DNA from: a virus
Taxonomy: Duplodnaviria > Heunggongvirae > Uroviricota > Caudoviricetes
DNA length: 42,124 bases
Virus record (IMG/VR): IMGVR_UViG_2909282993_000003
Coordinates: 1-42,124 of that record
Direction: 5' to 3' (one strand)
The position numbers and the translations under genes were made by a program. The notes under the pieces are model-generated. The model saw nothing but the letters and a program-made list of their open reading frames with translations. It ran no database searches and was not told the origin of the DNA. Shown piece by piece: positions 6,965 to 16,049 of this stretch (position 1 is its first letter; each line of letters starts with the position of its first letter).

Positions 6965-7469
6965 ACAGGCTCGTGAGGCTCTGGATGCCTGGATATGTCG
7001 ACCAGGAATGACACAGGAGCAGGCGACGATATTAATCACTGAAGCATTCTGGGCTTTGAAAGAGCGCCCGAACATTGATGTTCAGCGTGTCACATCTGAA
7101 GGTGGCGTGGTTGATCAGCGAGCGCTTGGCGTTAATCGAGTGAAGATATTCGAACGCTGGAAGGCTATCGACACTAGGGATAAGCGTGAAAAGTTCACAG
7201 CGCTAGTGCCTGCAATTATGGAGGCTATCCGGATTAATGATTTCAGGTTGTATCGTGAAATTAGTGACGGAAAAAGCATCACGTACATGATCGCCGGGTT
7301 AAACAAAGAATATGGCGATGTGGTGGAGTCCGGACTGCTTTTTGCTGATCCTGCCGTAGTGGATCGTGAAACTGACGAACTTATAGAAAAAGCAATTGCT
7401 TTCAAACTTGCGTATCGACAGCAATACCAACAAAAAGCTGGATGGAATTATGAGCCTTCTTTTTGCTGA
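6948..7469 (+). CDS. Hypothetical early protein (173 aa) in the cII/ydaT position
   Basis: ORF immediately downstream of the cro-like gene, overlapping its stop by 17 nt; no confident family assignment. Confidence 0.5.
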   Translation: MKITPEQAREALDAWICRPGMTQEQATILITEAFWALKERPNIDVQRVTSEGGVVDQRALGVNRVKIFERWKAIDTRDKREKFTALVPAIMEAIRINDFRLYREISDGKSITYMIAGLNKEYGDVVESGLLFADPAVVDRETDELIEKAIAFKLAYRQQYQQKAGWNYEPSFC

Positions 7470-8415
7470 ACGCCCACTGGTTATAAACACACAGCTTGCG
7501 ATGAAGATTGGCTTAAATGAAGCCATTGTGTTGCAGCAGTTGCATTACTGGTTGAGAGATACCAATTCCGGCATGGAATGTGATGGTGTTCGCTGGATTT
7601 ACAACACAACGGAACAATGGCTGGAACAGTTCCCATTCTGGTCAGAGTCAACGTTAAAGCGCGCGTTTGCAAGTCTGAAAACGCTGGGGCTCTTGCGTTG
7701 TGAAAAGCTCAATAAATCAAAGCGCGATATGACCAATTTCTACACGATTAACTATGGGAGCGAGCTTTTAGATGATGGCAAATTGAGCGAATCCATCGGT
7801 TCAAAATGCGCCGCTCCATCAGGTCAAAATGACACGATGGAAGAGGTCAAAATGAAACGCTCCATTGGTTCAAAACGACCCAATGTCATCGGGTCAAAAT
7901 GGCCCGATGATCCTACAGAGAATACAACAGAGATTACTACAGAGAATAAAAACACTTTTCGTCCGGAAGCTTCGCAACCGGACCCGCAGACGGCTGAACA
8001 GGATTTTTTAATCCGGCACCCTGGCGCAGTTGTGTTTAGTGCGAAAAAACGCCAGTGGGGTAGCCAGGAGGATCTGGCGTGTGCGCAGTGGATATGGGGG
8101 CGGATCGTGGGTCTCTACGAACAGGCCGCCAGTGATGATGGCGAGATCATGCGACCAAAAGAGCCTAACTGGACTGTCTGGGCCAATGATGTGCGCACAA
8201 TGCGGATGCTGGATGGCAGAAGCCACAGACAAATTTGTGAAATGTTTGGTCGGGTACAGCGGGATCCGTTCTGGGTAAAAAACATCATGAGCCCGTCAAA
8301 GCTCCGCGAAAAATGGGACGAACTGGTCATCCGCCTGGGGCGTTCACCTGTACAGCGTTGTGTTAATCATATTTCTGAACCGGATACAGAAATTCCGCCT
8401 GGTTTCAGAGGATAA
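7450..8415 (+). CDS. Replication initiation protein (lambda O-like) containing the origin iterons
   Basis: N-terminal segment LAMKIGLNEAIVLQQLHYWL resembles the DNA-binding N-domain of phage initiator proteins; five direct repeats lie within the coding sequence and encode the repeated SIGSK peptide; AT-rich stretch follows. Start could alternatively be the upstream TTG at 7396. Confidence 0.7.
   Translation: MSLLFAERPLVINTQLAMKIGLNEAIVLQQLHYWLRDTNSGMECDGVRWIYNTTEQWLEQFPFWSESTLKRAFASLKTLGLLRCEKLNKSKRDMTNFYTINYGSELLDDGKLSESIGSKCAAPSGQNDTMEEVKMKRSIGSKRPNVIGSKWPDDPTENTTEITTENKNTFRPEASQPDPQTAEQDFLIRHPGAVVFSAKKRQWGSQEDLACAQWIWGRIVGLYEQAASDDGEIMRPKEPNWTVWANDVRTMRMLDGRSHRQICEMFGRVQRDPFWVKNIMSPSKLREKWDELVIRLGRSPVQRCVNHISEPDTEIPPGFRG
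7793..7902 (+). repeat. Iteron array (5 copies, about 23-bp period, consensus TCCATCGGTTCAAAATG): candidate ori
   Basis: Direct repeats at about 7793, 7816, 7844, 7862 and 7887, followed by AT-rich ACAGAGA-type repeats at 7910-7960; same organisation as lambda ori inside gene O. Confidence 0.7.
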
Positions 8416-8455
8416 GTTTTGATTTCAGGTCATGAGGTAATTTTAAGGGGGACTT

Positions 8456-8878
8456 GTGGCAAAAGTTTTTACACAAGAAGAGCGGGAAAAAATTAAAGGG
8501 CAGGTGGTGGAACTCGTGCGCCAGAGCGGTCGTGAGACGTTACGGCAACTGGAAGTCAAGACAGGTGCGACAAGATATCTGATGAGCGTTCTCGCAAGAG
8601 AGCTGGTTGCCAGCGGCGATGTATACAACTCTGGTTACGGGTTATTCCCGTCTGAACAGGCGCGTAAGGACTGGCAAAATGCCCGTAAAAAGCTCTCAAG
8701 GGCAAAGCTGAAGGAACCATCTGCGGTTGATCCGGACCTTATCTGGTCATTACCTGACGGAGAAATACGTCGCTACGACAGGCGTCAGAACATAATCTGT
8801 CACGAGTGCCGGAAGAGTGAAGTTATGCAGCGCATACTAGCATTCTATCAGGGAAATGCTCGATATTTATTGAAGTGA
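8456..8878 (+). CDS. Hypothetical protein (140 aa) downstream of the initiator
   Basis: GTG start preceded by AAGGGGGA; basic protein; too small for a DnaC/P-type helicase loader; no recognisable motif. Confidence 0.5.
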   Translation: MAKVFTQEEREKIKGQVVELVRQSGRETLRQLEVKTGATRYLMSVLARELVASGDVYNSGYGLFPSEQARKDWQNARKKLSRAKLKEPSAVDPDLIWSLPDGEIRRYDRRQNIICHECRKSEVMQRILAFYQGNARYLLK

Positions 8879-9130
8879 TGAGATTAAAGTTTATTAGTTC
8901 AGATATTGATTGGCTCTTTTGTGGAGTAGGGTAGAGTTAGTGTGTTTGTCTGCTTGGTGCCAGCAGCGGATATGTTTAACAACAGAAAGCATTCAGCATG
9001 GTTAGTGGATTTGCAAAGTGGATTAGGATTTGAGAAACTTTGATGAAGTTGTAAAGCTTGTTTCTATAAAAATAGAAATTTAACTAATAGTTAAACACAC
9101 CTCCAGCTTCATTGAAAAGGATTATTAGCT

Positions 9131-10030
9131 ATGATTGATCCACTTATTAGAAACTTACAGAGTGATATTGCACTACTCCAGCTTTATATCGCGCAACGCA
9201 AACAGGCAGGCTTTCATGACATGGAAAGAATAATTGAGTCATTGACCATCTTTATGTTTCGCGCGCTGAAAATGGGTGAACTGGTAAACATGAATCAGAT
9301 TAAAGTTAATTTTCCCGCCATTGATTTAGCTGATAATAAAAACATGATAGCAGTTCAAGTTACTACGAATGCAAGTCCAGCAAAAATTAAAAAAACTATC
9401 GAATCTTTTGATGAAACAAATGAAATAGGAGAGAGTCTGAAAGATAAATACTCTACTTTATATATTTTTGGTTTTTGTAAAGCCTCAAGATACCTAACTC
9501 CAAGTTATTGTAAAATAATCGACCCCAGCTATTTCGTGAATGAACTTTGCGATAAAGCAGATGAAGATATGGTCCAGGATATGATTGACGCCATTCGACG
9601 CCATCATGATTATACATCATTACATCCATGGAGTGATAAAGATTCACTCGAAATTATACTCAATATTATTAATCGCAATGCAATAAAACATCGGATGAGT
9701 TGCGAAGGCAGTCTGTCTGATATGCTCACTGGTTTAAAAGAAATTAATGAAGTAATTACAAAAGGAACAATTCAACGTAAGCAACGTTCAAAATCGATAT
9801 CTGACTTCAAAGATCAAAGCATGGTGAAATTTATGAGAGGTGTAATGGATGATTTGTCTGTTATTCAAGCCATAGTGAACAAATCTAAAGTTAACCAAGG
9901 TGATATGGTTTATATAAGCCATGAAGATATGATTAATATTGATAAATTAAAAGCTAAAATAGCAAGTGATTCATCAGAGATTGCAAGGCTAAATAATATT
10001 GATATAACACTAAATGTTGTTGATTTATAA
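9131..10030 (+). CDS. Hypothetical protein (299 aa) in AT-rich accessory island; possible abortive-infection/defence protein
   Basis: Long uninterrupted ORF in visibly AT-rich DNA, where random stops are frequent; AT-rich promoter-like upstream region; no NTPase motif; contains an Rx4H tetrad (RNAIKH) that may or may not be HEPN-like. Confidence 0.7.
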   Translation: MIDPLIRNLQSDIALLQLYIAQRKQAGFHDMERIIESLTIFMFRALKMGELVNMNQIKVNFPAIDLADNKNMIAVQVTTNASPAKIKKTIESFDETNEIGESLKDKYSTLYIFGFCKASRYLTPSYCKIIDPSYFVNELCDKADEDMVQDMIDAIRRHHDYTSLHPWSDKDSLEIILNIINRNAIKHRMSCEGSLSDMLTGLKEINEVITKGTIQRKQRSKSISDFKDQSMVKFMRGVMDDLSVIQAIVNKSKVNQGDMVYISHEDMINIDKLKAKIASDSSEIARLNNIDITLNVVDL

Positions 10031-10344
10031 TTGTCGATTTAGCAAAACAGAGAATGCTTTGAAAGTTTCACCGAGAAATATTTATTGTGAACCTCCTTAT
10101 TGTTTATCGACTTTTACTCTCCGCTCATTGCAGTACTGTCGGAGAAGGCTACTATGTACAAGAAGCAGCTAACATAAGCGAGCATCACTATTGATATTAG
10201 GAAGAGTATATAAAAACTTCATGCTGAACCTTACAAAAGTAGGTAAACCGGCAATGGCCTAAGTGGCAGGGTCATGTTGATCCGGCACTGCCGAGCTAAT
10301 AATTAACAAGCAAATCACTCTTTCTAATAATTTGTTGAAATAAA

Positions 10345-11004
10345 CTAAATATGTATATGTTTACCAACAACCACATATGAACTACCTGCTTTGCTCCATG
10401 ATTTTATTATTTCTAAATTATTATCTGAGCATATTTTACTTACAGTATCCACATCTAATAAACCATAGTAGAAAGCATTACGAGAGTTTTGGTATATATA
10501 CCCATGCAAATGTTTAATACCGCTCTCGTACCTCTTGAAATAAGAACTTTTGTATTGATTGACAATCAGTGCTTCACCATCACTCTTTAATAATTTTCTA
10601 ATCGCACTGAGGACTTTGTGAATTGTGGATTCACATGGAATTGCGGAAAGCACGTTTGCGCAAAGTATGAAATCATAATGATTTGTTATTTTATCTATAT
10701 TTTCATAAGAAACAATATTAGCATTCTTATAGTTATTTATCACGTAATCTGGAATCGTGGTTTGTACACCTCTGATAATTTGCACTCTTTCTAGTTGTCT
10801 TCTGGAATCTAAAAATGTCACAGTTTCAAATTTATTTACTAATTGTTCTGAATATCTAAGTTTTCCACATCCAAAATCAAGGGCATTGCCATTTTTATTA
10901 GTGCTTTCAATCTGTTTACAGAGATAGTTAGATGGCATAGTGTGCGGTTTCGCTGCATTTTCTGAACGTATGTTTATTCCATTTATTTTGTAATTCAAAA
11001 TCAA
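10345..11004 (-). CDS. Class I SAM-dependent methyltransferase-like protein
   Basis: 219-aa ORF with motif I ALDFGCGKL (GxGxG), downstream acidic and hydrophobic motif YDFILCANVL and LKSDGEALIV, consistent with a Rossmann-fold methyltransferase; AT-rich; 6-nt gap after the upstream membrane-protein gene. Confidence 0.8.
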   Translation of the reverse strand: MILNYKINGINIRSENAAKPHTMPSNYLCKQIESTNKNGNALDFGCGKLRYSEQLVNKFETVTFLDSRRQLERVQIIRGVQTTIPDYVINNYKNANIVSYENIDKITNHYDFILCANVLSAIPCESTIHKVLSAIRKLLKSDGEALIVNQYKSSYFKRYESGIKHLHGYIYQNSRNAFYYGLLDVDTVSKICSDNNLEIIKSWSKAGSSYVVVGKHIHI

Positions 11005-11010
11005 CCTCGT

Positions 11011-11718
11011 TTAAAAAATATTGTTATTGTTAAAGAATTCTTTTATTTTGCTATCAGGTATTTGTCTTACTTGGCTTTCTGTTCTTGGTTTAACTGATGC
11101 TATGAAAATAAGGAAGTCAAATGCGACAAGAGAAATAATCCACAACCAAAGATTAATTAAAGAGCCAGTAACAGAGAATATATTTGTTAATTTGGCGATA
11201 CTTATTATTAAAATAGTAACAAATGCGATTACTGTATGTTCAAAGAAAACCCAAAAGTAATAAACTTTGTTCCAGAAAAGTTCAACGTAATGTTTGTCTT
11301 TTAACTCTTTAACTTCTGGGTAATACAGTTTACTCATTACCTTGTGAGATTCTTCAGTAGTTAATTTTCTCGTAACGCCTGCAATTTTTGCTAATGGTTT
11401 AATAATTAAATGACTATCCCACATCTTCCTTATTTCAATAATTTTTGCTACATTATTATGTAGATCTAAAGCTCCACTAATTACTGACCAAAAAACTGAA
11501 GATGCAATTGGTAATATGCCAAAGGTTAATATCCATTTAATAAATTCCTCGTAGTCTTTAACGGGGGGGATATACTTGGCATTAATGCCAACCAATGGCA
11601 TGTAGCCATAAATGACTAATGATAGGTAAAATATAAATGTAGTAATAAAAGTCGCCTTATGGAGCATAGGCAACATTTCATTATAACTCTTTGGTGGTTC
11701 TAACATTTTACTCTCCAA
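11011..11718 (-). CDS. Integral membrane protein (about 4 predicted TM helices), first gene of an operon with the methyltransferase
   Basis: 235-aa ORF with four long hydrophobic segments (two N-terminal, two C-terminal) around a central soluble region of about 80 aa; AT-rich; same strand as, and tightly linked to, the methyltransferase. Confidence 0.75.
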   Translation of the reverse strand: MESKMLEPPKSYNEMLPMLHKATFITTFIFYLSLVIYGYMPLVGINAKYIPPVKDYEEFIKWILTFGILPIASSVFWSVISGALDLHNNVAKIIEIRKMWDSHLIIKPLAKIAGVTRKLTTEESHKVMSKLYYPEVKELKDKHYVELFWNKVYYFWVFFEHTVIAFVTILIISIAKLTNIFSVTGSLINLWLWIISLVAFDFLIFIASVKPRTESQVRQIPDSKIKEFFNNNNIF

Positions 11719-12448
11719 ACATTCAAAAAAAAGCTAATCTTCTATAATAACGAAATTCAGCTGGCACAATTAAAGATTAATTGCCACCAATTTCTTGATT
11801 TTATAATTTTATCTAAATGTTTTTGATTAATCTAGTCCTAAAAGAAACCTACTGCATAAATATTTATGCTGATGACCCACTCCCTGTTCGTTAACACATA
11901 GCAACGTTAGTAATGCATCCTAAGTGATCAATATTTTTGCTAGCTTCATCTGCTCGCTCAAAGGGAACTATAATGTTGGCTTGCGTGTGACTTGGCATGT
12001 TTAAAGAAGTGCTGGTGGTGACTGGTTGCTGTTTTCCATTTCCACAGAACAAAATCATAGAAACTATACCCAGTAGTTGTATTGAATCACTGACGAGACA
12101 GCCTCATATTTATCAGGACTGGTGTACGTCCAATACAGGAGGTTGTGGTGCTGGTTCTCAAATGTGCGCTGGCTATTGCTGCTGTAATGGCAATTTATTG
12201 TCTTGCTGTTGTTCTTATGGATCACCTTTCTGATTGATTTCATATTGGCGAGGTAACGGTAGTTAAGTAGAATTGCTGCGGGTGCTTGAGGCTATCTGCC
12301 TCGGGCATCAACACCAAAGGCAGATAGAGAAAAGCCCCAGTTAACATTACGCGTCCGGCAAGACGCTTAACATTAATCTGAGGCCATATCTATGCTCTAC
12401 ACACGTAGGTTAGCCTCTTACGTGCCGAAAGGCAAGGAGAAGCAGGCT

Positions 12449-12604
12449 ATGAAGCAGCAAAAGGCGATGCTAATCGCCCTGATCGTCATCTGTTTAACCG
12501 TCATAGTGACGGCACTGGTAACGAGGAAAGACCTCTGCGAGGTACGAATCCGAACCGGCCAGACGGAGGTCGCTGTCTTCACAGCTTACGAACCTGAGGA
12601 GTAA
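12449..12604 (+). CDS. hokD: Hok/Gef family type I toxin (HokD/RelF-like)
   Basis: 51-aa product MKQQKAMLIALIVICLTVIVTALVTRKDLCEVRIRTGQTEVAVFTAYEPEE, a typical Hok single-TM peptide matching recalled HokD; upstream 9-bp perfect hairpin at 12292-12327 and a downstream GC hairpin plus intrinsic terminator, typical of hok mRNA folding elements. Confidence 0.85.
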   Translation: MKQQKAMLIALIVICLTVIVTALVTRKDLCEVRIRTGQTEVAVFTAYEPEE

Positions 12605-12674
12605 GAGACCCGGCGAGGGAGAAATCCCTCGCCACCTCTGATGTGGCAGGCATCCTCAACGCACCCGCACTTAA

Positions 12675-12699
12675 CCCGCTTCGGCGGGTTTTTGTTTTT
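12675..12699 (+). terminator. Rho-independent terminator downstream of hokD
   Basis: CCCGC-TTCG-GCGGG stem-loop followed by TTTTTGTTTTT. Confidence 0.6.
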
Positions 12700-15739: not shown

Positions 15740-15815
15740 GGCCCTTTAGCTCAGTGGTGAGAGCGAGCGACTCATAATCGCCAGGTCGCTGGTTCAAATC
15801 CAGCAAGGGCCACCA
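15740..15815 (+). tRNA. tRNA with CAU anticodon (Ile2/ileX-like or Met)
   Basis: 76-nt cloverleaf folded by hand: acceptor GGCCCTT/AAGGGCC, D arm GCTC/GAGC, anticodon loop CTCATAA, T loop TTCAAAT, 3' CCA encoded; closely resembles recalled host ileX. Confidence 0.85.
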
Positions 15816-15816
15816 A

Positions 15817-15893
15817 CCGCCACTGGCTCATCAGGAAAGAGCGTCAACCCTTTAAGTTGAGTGTGCGAGGTTCGAGTCCCCGGTGGCGGTCCA
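15817..15893 (+). tRNA. tRNA-like gene, anticodon ambiguous (loop CCTTTAA; reads UUU with a non-canonical C33); possibly degenerate
   Basis: Acceptor CCGCCAC/GTGGCGG, D arm GCTC/GAGC, T loop TTCGAGT, CCA encoded; T stem has one mismatch; anticodon loop lacks the conserved U33. Confidence 0.5.
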
Positions 15894-15895
15894 GT

Positions 15896-15971
<76 letters not shown>

Positions 15972-15974
15972 TAT

Positions 15975-16049
<75 letters not shown>

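Follow-up and report, generated by a model that had tools for sequence, protein, structure and literature searches.

An AT-rich cargo block in a Qin-like prophage joins a SMEK-domain gene and a ymfE-ymfD pair at a hypervariable site beside hokD

Results

A mobile AT-rich block beside hokD

This study concerns IMG/VR record IMGVR_UViG_2909282993_000003, a 42,124-nt stretch of Caudoviricetes DNA that is referred to here as the window, and in particular an AT-rich block at positions 8952 to 11872 (about 2.9 kb, no strand) that lies between the replication module and the sok/hokD locus. The block carries a gene for a 299-residue protein (9131 to 10030, plus strand) whose N-terminal part is, from its profile matches, a SMEK (Mrr-like PD-(D/E)XK) nuclease domain. 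As the original prediction described, this gene is convergent with an operon on the minus strand, in which a 235-residue inner-membrane protein with four transmembrane segments (11011 to 11718) is followed, after a gap of 6 nt, by a 219-residue class I S-adenosylmethionine-dependent methyltransferase (10345 to 11004). RefSeq starts these two genes at 11706 and 10998, giving 231 and 217 residues, respectively. Our results reveal that the block is composite, being built of a SMEK module and a ymfE-ymfD (ymfED) module, and suggest that it is hotspot cargo that is probably defensive.

A sharp drop in base composition at this site, which had been read from the sequence, is borne out by sliding-window analysis. 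The guanine-plus-cytosine (GC) fraction in 1-kb windows is 0.31-0.33 across 9001-12000, compared with 0.46-0.49 to the left and 0.47-0.53 to the right. The block as a whole has a GC of 0.323, with 0.330 for the SMEK gene, 0.314 for the ymfD-like gene, 0.305 for the ymfE-like gene and 0.253 for the region upstream of ymfED, against 0.494 for the DUF977 gene, 0.526 for hokD and 0.495 for the whole window. The original prediction had set the island at 8879 to 12300. While the existence of the island stands, its extent had to be trimmed, since the true mobile unit ends at 8952 and 11872 as judged by colinear blastn matches to other prophages. The stretch from 11873 to 12300 has a GC of 0.45 and is a conserved hok/sok-proximal flank that is common to phages Tritos, Evi and mEp460.

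Three non-coding regions complete the block. The region upstream of the SMEK gene (8952 to 9130, plus strand) travels with that gene and may hold its own promoter; it is kept where SMEK occurs solo, from 8942 in locus L004 and from 9007 in locus L075. The spacer between the convergent genes (10031 to 10344, no strand) is partly variable between alleles, with homology to loci L069 and L071 breaking between 10190 and 10259, and it shows neither a terminator-like site in our scan nor an Rfam family. The region upstream of ymfE-ymfD, together with the right end of the block, occupies 11719 to 11872 (minus strand). Scans of the island for consensus promoters and for terminators gave no more sites than expected by chance, and the sole Rfam match at the locus is sok, which lies outside the block.

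A SMEK domain joined to a helical bundle

The three genes had at first been taken as unassigned, but profile searches give SMEK_N for the first protein and YmfD and YmfE orthology for the other two. At residues 5-120, SMEK_N was found both by Pfam (PF21941, 2.5e-22, 79.7 bits against a cut-off of 27) and by NCBIfam (NF033859, 1.1e-30, 105.3 bits against a cut-off of 30). PADLOC matched its Aga_REase profile (Argonaute-associated restriction endonuclease) at 1.4e-20, a match confined to the first ~146 residues of the protein and to profile positions 9-143 of 463. A profile of the family retrieved one solved structure, the Mrr domain of the Mrr-APAZ prokaryotic Argonaute (pAgo) of Kordia jejudonensis (PDB 26bh, E = 2.9e-12), and the motif NFPAIDLAD...Q-x-T is common to this domain and the SMEK protein. 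A restriction-endonuclease-like alpha/beta core fold is present in the N-terminal domain (about residues 1-145). SMEK has been described as the Mrr-like nuclease effector of clade S2B short-pAgo systems, named SPARMA (PMC10810196; bioRxiv 10.1101/2023.06.08.544223; bioRxiv 10.1101/2025.04.08.647717). From these matches we infer that the protein acts as a nuclease.

Across the SMEK family E36, D65 and Q76 are invariant, and the place of the canonical motif lysine is taken by an invariant threonine, T78 (Q76-V-T78). The Kordia Mrr domain likewise has Q-I-T. On the next helix K85 is invariant and K88 nearly so, and either might replace the motif lysine. The D...Q-x motif resembles the D...QxK of the MspJI/AspBHI class, and a preprint on SPARDA names AspBHI as the closest homologue.

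The C-terminal half of the protein (~145-299) is an all-helical up-down bundle that is specific to the family and confined to this architecture. We found no APAZ domain in the protein, and no Argonaute gene is annotated within 9 kb of the SMEK gene. Because of these two absences the protein cannot be guide-directed in the manner of SPARMA, and membership of SPARMA is ruled out. Pfam searches of the protein gave no Mrr_cat match at E <= 1, and no modified-DNA-binding domain is recognisable on the nuclease. The whole 299-residue architecture is kept from Enterobacteria to Bacteroidota, with the motifs retained down to ~30% identity, which points to purifying selection on SMEK. Our literature search found nothing on a stand-alone SMEK protein.

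Stand-alone SMEK genes in defence-rich surroundings

A survey with one genome per species gave 27 SMEK loci, and the 23 that are full-length or nearly so span gamma- and beta-proteobacteria, Campylobacterota and Bacteroidota. YmfD or YmfE homologues lie within 10 kb of SMEK in 0/23 of these loci, and no partner family other than SMEK itself is common to more than two of the 23 within 6 kb. SMEK is therefore a stand-alone gene without a conserved partner. Its GC is below that of its surroundings in 19/19 loci, and its neighbours include integrases, resolvases, toxin-antitoxin pairs, AAA_13 and AAA_21 ATPases, SymE, TacAT, Abi_alpha, SLATT_5 and Gp49/HTH genes. Among 100 neighbouring open reading frames from 21 species loci there are strong matches to a CBASS cyclase with its 4TM effector, DpdF, AriA, IetS, defence reverse transcriptases (DRT), the candidate systems PDC-S05, PDC-S19 and PDC-S21, three Mrr_cat enzymes and AbiEii-like ATPases. 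These neighbourhoods carry a clear signature of defence islands and mobile elements.

The chief alternative for the SMEK protein is that it is a constitutive Type IV modification-dependent endonuclease, in which modified phage DNA is recognised by the C-terminal domain and cleaved by the Mrr-like domain, without abortive infection. A Mrr-like nuclease domain is typical of Type IV enzymes; these are encoded alone and need no cognate methyltransferase. The domain found here fits this pattern, as does a single gene of about 300 residues (EcoKMrr has 304) without a conserved partner. The three Mrr_cat enzymes at other SMEK loci also speak for it, as they point to restriction-rich islands. On the other hand, the up-down helical bundle is unlike the winged-helix, SRA or PUA-like readers, the domain order is opposite to that of EcoKMrr, with which there is no sequence similarity, and the closest homologue of the nuclease domain is a triggered effector in a pAgo system (PMC10810196). 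We consider the Type IV explanation unlikely.

Some SMEK loci show arrangements of their own. In Vibrio cyclitrophicus (L043-L045, ~7001-8755) the core genes matE and gcvP are separated by an insert of two genes, SMEK and one with an Abi_alpha domain; this may represent a small islet of defence genes or a pairing specific to the lineage. In Pseudomonas (L046-L048; 7001-10736 in L046) the genes after SMEK on its strand encode a family-less protein of 219 residues, a SLATT_5-domain protein and a family-less protein of 309 residues. All three contigs keep this gene row, which may constitute a separate or an extended system. A 3048-bp contig filed under Streptomyces sp. (L003, NZ_JBFBIU010000052.1) encodes a SMEK protein with 87% identity to that of E. 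coli and is probably an enterobacterial contaminant.

The ymfE-ymfD pair

The methyltransferase is 68% identical to YmfD of E. coli K-12 (b1137) over 214 residues and the membrane protein is 59% identical to YmfE (b1138) over 232 residues, both matches being full-length. By this measure of similarity the operon is a full-length orthologue of the named ymfE-ymfD genes of the K-12 element e14. The DNA identity of the window ymfED to the e14 allele is ~69%.

For the methyltransferase, Pfam gave weak matches to Methyltransf_12/23 and to TehB (24 bits, cut-off 20.4), NCBIfam TehB scored 28 against a cut-off of 218, and PADLOC gave a weak generic methyltransferase match, mad2 (8.2e-5). A YmfD profile searched against PDB had its best matches, at E >= 0.002, to a protein-lysine methyltransferase, TehB and UbiG, while a single-sequence PDB search gave no match. 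None of the DNA-methyltransferase motifs (D/N/S)PP(Y/F/W), PCQ or ENV is present in YmfD, which rules out a restriction-modification-like reading of the block; the obligate co-occurrence of nuclease and methyltransferase expected of such a system is likewise absent, as each is widespread alone. For YmfE, hydropathy places the transmembrane segments at about 25-45, 63-84, 150-181 and 188-209, with a charged, helical loop of ~65-75 residues between the second and third. The AlphaFold 2 model (pLDDT 87.3, pTM 0.82) is all helical and also has four transmembrane segments. YmfE has no Pfam, NCBIfam or PADLOC family and no specific structural analogue in PDB or BFVD. The literature that we found on ymfD and ymfE consists of incidental mentions only.

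The order ymfE then ymfD is kept in all loci examined, and nearly all occurrences of the pair are at prophage cargo sites. Without SMEK it occurs in e14, in 283 E. coli genomes; at the ends of P2/186-like prophages in Providencia, Enterobacter asburiae and Yersinia; in the post-replication slot of an Enterobacter lambdoid prophage; at a prophage end in Cronobacter; and in Marinobacter, where the pair (YmfE 36% and YmfD 44% identity) lies between insertion sequence (IS) elements and a Phd/YoeB toxin-antitoxin pair. In e14 it adjoins lit. No relationship was found between SMEK and Lit, the positional counterpart of SMEK in e14.

Two modules that travel together but also apart

Four other loci match 8952-11872 colinearly, intergenic DNA included, with the same ends and with 83-86% DNA identity; the blastn matches extend over 8959-11863 in L049, 8952-11872 in L068 and 8957-11872 in L069 and L071. 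L049 is another lambdoid prophage, with a DnaB-type replication module. In L068 the block lies downstream of the tail-tip J gene, and in L069 and L071 it is placed between an integrase/GT4 glycosyltransferase pair and tail-fibre genes. A search with the window genes that flank the block found no homologue in any of these four loci. Within one enterobacterial prophage lineage, the trio is co-inherited as one block, and the E. coli allele counts agree for SMEK and ymfED, with 146 at >=99% and 5 at 80-90%. The GT4 'conflict-system' glycosyltransferase of L071 (6596-7738; PF20706, 7e-13), which is directly upstream of the block and adjoins the integrase, is probably further lysogenic-conversion or defence cargo.

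Each module is also found without the other. A solo SMEK unit corresponding to ~8942-10033, with its upstream region, is present in Pectobacterium (L004) and in a P2-like prophage, where it adjoins a DUF4062 protein (L075), and SMEK occurs without ymfED in EC05 as well. Neighbour-joining trees place the trio-linked SMEKs in a single clade with the solo copies L004 and L075 as its sister group, and the solo ymfED cassettes (~84% identity) interleave with the trio copies. These results reveal that SMEK and ymfED are separable, independently mobile modules. The simplest reading is a single fusion of the two modules into one cassette, followed by en-bloc transfer and occasional separation.

The original prediction implied a single three-gene system. 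An integrated system of this kind, for example one that is restriction-modification-like or toxin-antidote-like, would have methylation by YmfD, organised by YmfE, shield the host from SMEK or gate it. The intactness of all three open reading frames and the single clade of trio-linked SMEKs are in line with such a system, as are the coinciding E. coli allele counts. The trio order, its orientation and the block ends are also constant among alleles at the ~99%, 88% and 83% levels, across at least four prophage positions that are unrelated. However, SMEK lacks ymfED in 23 other-species loci as well as in EC05, L004 and L075, and ymfED lacks SMEK in e14, Enterobacter, Cronobacter, Yersinia, Providencia and Marinobacter, some of these copies being as close (~84%) as the diverged trio alleles. 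Moreover, YmfD is without DNA-methyltransferase motifs, and the two units are convergent, each with its own upstream region. Because synteny and co-occurrence comparison finds each module widespread without the other, the single-system explanation was demoted, and we regard it as very doubtful.

A hypervariable slot

The identical locus in RefSeq belongs to a Qin-like lambdoid prophage of E. coli F9792, which runs int, xis, exo, ydfD, dicB, ydfC/B/A, repressor, cro, ydaT, a replication gene and DUF977 up to the island and continues after it with hokD, rem, DUF968, rusA, Q, tRNAs and lysis genes. The full island is present in 151 of the 5426 complete E. coli genomes. Neither flank is cargo. On the left, the DUF977 gene (8456 to 8878, plus strand, RefSeq annotation) ends the replication module, and matches to other strains stop at about 8857-8970. 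On the right lie the sok RNA and the hokD toxin gene (12280 to 12604, plus strand), with sok at 12280-12454 by Rfam and hokD annotated at 12449-12604. The position by hokD, at the usual relBE site, was correctly recognised in the original prediction, as hokD/sok is directly to the right and E. coli IAI1 and XJ6-3 carry the K-12-type set ydfW-flxA-ydfV-relB-relE at the slot.

In a spread sample of other strains the same slot holds RelA/SpoT-domain, DUF4209, KwaB-like, SIR2 and AbiH genes, and also NgoMIV restriction-modification, QueH, RelE/ParE and DUF7167 genes. Occupancy varies between conserved phage genes, and known defence genes are among the alternatives. The DUF977-to-sok/hokD slot is thus hypervariable, and the suggestion that the block is separately acquired accessory cargo at a variable site holds, given its presence in only a part of the E. 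coli genomes and the alternative defence or toxin-antitoxin genes elsewhere.

Some copies of the island are decaying (E. coli genomes NZ_CP127265.1, NZ_CP043217.1 and NZ_CP148416.1; locus L053). In TW14425 an IS5 has inserted within the island, in two strains the SMEK gene is split by the loss of 1 nt, and in one IMG/VR contig the ymfE match is truncated.

These features bear on a further explanation, in which the block is not anti-phage cargo at all. The ymfED pair would then serve host physiology, such as TehB-like methylation of toxic compounds or modification of lipids or quinones, and SMEK would be a selfish or decaying hitch-hiker at a slot prone to recombination. The best, though weak, matches of YmfD are to small-molecule or lipid methyltransferases of the TehB, UbiG, BioC, NodS and PmtA types. 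SMEK lacks the canonical catalytic lysine, some E. coli copies carry the IS5 insertion or a frameshift, and genes without a defence role, such as QueH and flxA, are also among the occupants of the slot. Such an explanation does not sit well with the conservation of SMEK architecture and motifs across phyla to ~30% identity, with SMEK neighbourhoods that are rich in defence and mobile elements, or with a ymfED pair that is almost restricted to prophage cargo sites and stands beside lit in e14. We judge this explanation to be improbable.

Several minor features lie near the block. The hok/sok module at 12280-12604 is intact, and its sok RNA (Rfam 114 bits, E = 2.3e-26) extends into the beginning of hokD. 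A weak isrK-like match at 12613-12694 falls under the gathering score. Between the block and sok/hokD there is an unannotated 78-residue open reading frame (11997-12233, plus strand) with 13 cysteines, ending ...YCCCNGNLLSCCCSYGSPF. It stays open in Tritos and Evi, with amino-acid identities of 92% and 90% against a DNA identity of 94% for the stretch, and since the amino-acid identity is below the DNA identity it is probably non-coding. Four tRNA genes (Ile, Lys, Thr and Gly; RefSeq annotation) lie at ~15740-16049, or 15862-16171 in L001, just 3' of the antiterminator gene Q.

Discussion

We consider it fairly probable that the block is horizontally acquired 'moron' cargo, in which a stand-alone SMEK nuclease-type immunity or exclusion module has become fused to a ymfE-ymfD membrane methylation module. 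It is a reasonable anti-phage candidate, although not as one new three-gene system. In such a block the SMEK protein would be a cytoplasmic, two-domain immunity or exclusion factor that acts alone as a nuclease. Its private helical C-terminal domain may hold the nuclease inactive and, by analogy with the effectors of SPARDA, SPARHA and SPARMA, may sense a phage cue or drive oligomerisation, which would lead to activation. The activated protein would then cleave DNA, most likely in an abortive-infection type of response. The YmfD methyltransferase and YmfE, as their motifs and conserved pairing suggest, would act at the cytoplasmic face of the membrane on a substrate other than DNA, and could benefit the lysogen through exclusion or through modification of the envelope or of a metabolite. 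The strict prophage-cargo distribution of ymfED and its place beside lit suggest a role in exclusion or defence.

Several points weigh against this interpretation. The argument for defence comes from genomic context, and none of the deposited phage genomes contains the block. Catalysis by SMEK is not assured, because the lysine of the canonical D...(D/E/Q)xK motif is replaced by the invariant threonine, and comparison of EcoKMrr with the SMEK family profile by hhalign gave a probability of 0.3%, so that a direct relationship with EcoKMrr is not detected. The structural matches of the C-terminal domain are generic helical bundles only, which makes its role as a sensor a conjecture. Growth is normal when ymfD is knocked out in K-12, and the gene is not the writer of mRNA m6A (PMC12096079); the SOS response, which induces the e14 lytic genes, does not induce ymfD or ymfE with them (PMC11002266), although both reports are neutral on defence. 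Finally, the trio is kept as one block through ~12-17% protein divergence and in at least four insertion contexts, and such persistence could mean cooperation rather than mere co-travel. A stronger proposal would take both modules as undescribed anti-phage systems, the one a pAgo-independent SPARMA-type Mrr nuclease with a new helical sensor and the other the YmfE-YmfD pair that stands beside Lit in e14, with their co-transfer reflecting synergy or coupling. We hold this proposal to be quite improbable.

Comparison with known systems helps to place the cargo block that we favour. As originally proposed, no described defence system in PADLOC matches the gene set. The nuclease domain is homologous to the N-terminal domain of SPARMA proteins such as that of Kordia jejudonensis, but the SMEK protein carries a helical bundle where SPARMA has APAZ, and no Argonaute gene lies near it, either in the window or in the related loci that were examined. 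With Type IV Mrr and MspJI-AspBHI enzymes it has in common a stand-alone, two-domain protein of ~300 residues with a Mrr-like PD-(D/E)XK fold, and it differs from them in that it has no recognisable modified-DNA reader, bears a threonine where the motif has lysine and is not similar in sequence to EcoKMrr. The operon resembles the e14 ymfE-ymfD pair (b1138-b1137, beside lit) in gene order, spacing, low GC and prophage cargo position, but it is another allele in another prophage and slot and is joined to a SMEK gene instead of standing beside lit. Like TehA/TehB of tellurite resistance, it pairs a membrane protein with a TehB-like class I methyltransferase; unlike them, it has a YmfE with four transmembrane segments and no TehA similarity, a different gene order and prophage context, and an NCBIfam TehB score far below the cut-off. 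In its setting the block resembles prophage hotspots, both those of P2/P4 and lambdoid moron slots such as the relBE-hokD slot of Qin, in which a fixed slot holds low-GC, strain-variable cargo that includes defence genes. The present combination is not a catalogued system, and PADLOC gives only the partial SMEK domain match and the weak mad2 match to YmfD. The block is thus not SPARMA, restriction-modification or TehAB but prophage hotspot cargo. Its SMEK-plus-helical-bundle family is a variant on a known effector domain and is itself uncharacterised, as is the already known ymfED pair.

Should neither module act in defence, the block would be ordinary prophage cargo. If the SMEK-plus-bundle protein does defend, the Mrr-type effector of short Argonautes would also work on its own, as a single-gene immunity module that has another sensor, which would give insight into how such nucleases are switched on. 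If ymfE-ymfD proves to be phage-related, a function would be assigned to two long-standing K-12 y-genes. The DUF977-to-sok/hokD slot of Qin-like prophages is, in addition, a concrete hypervariable site that can be mined for more cargo.

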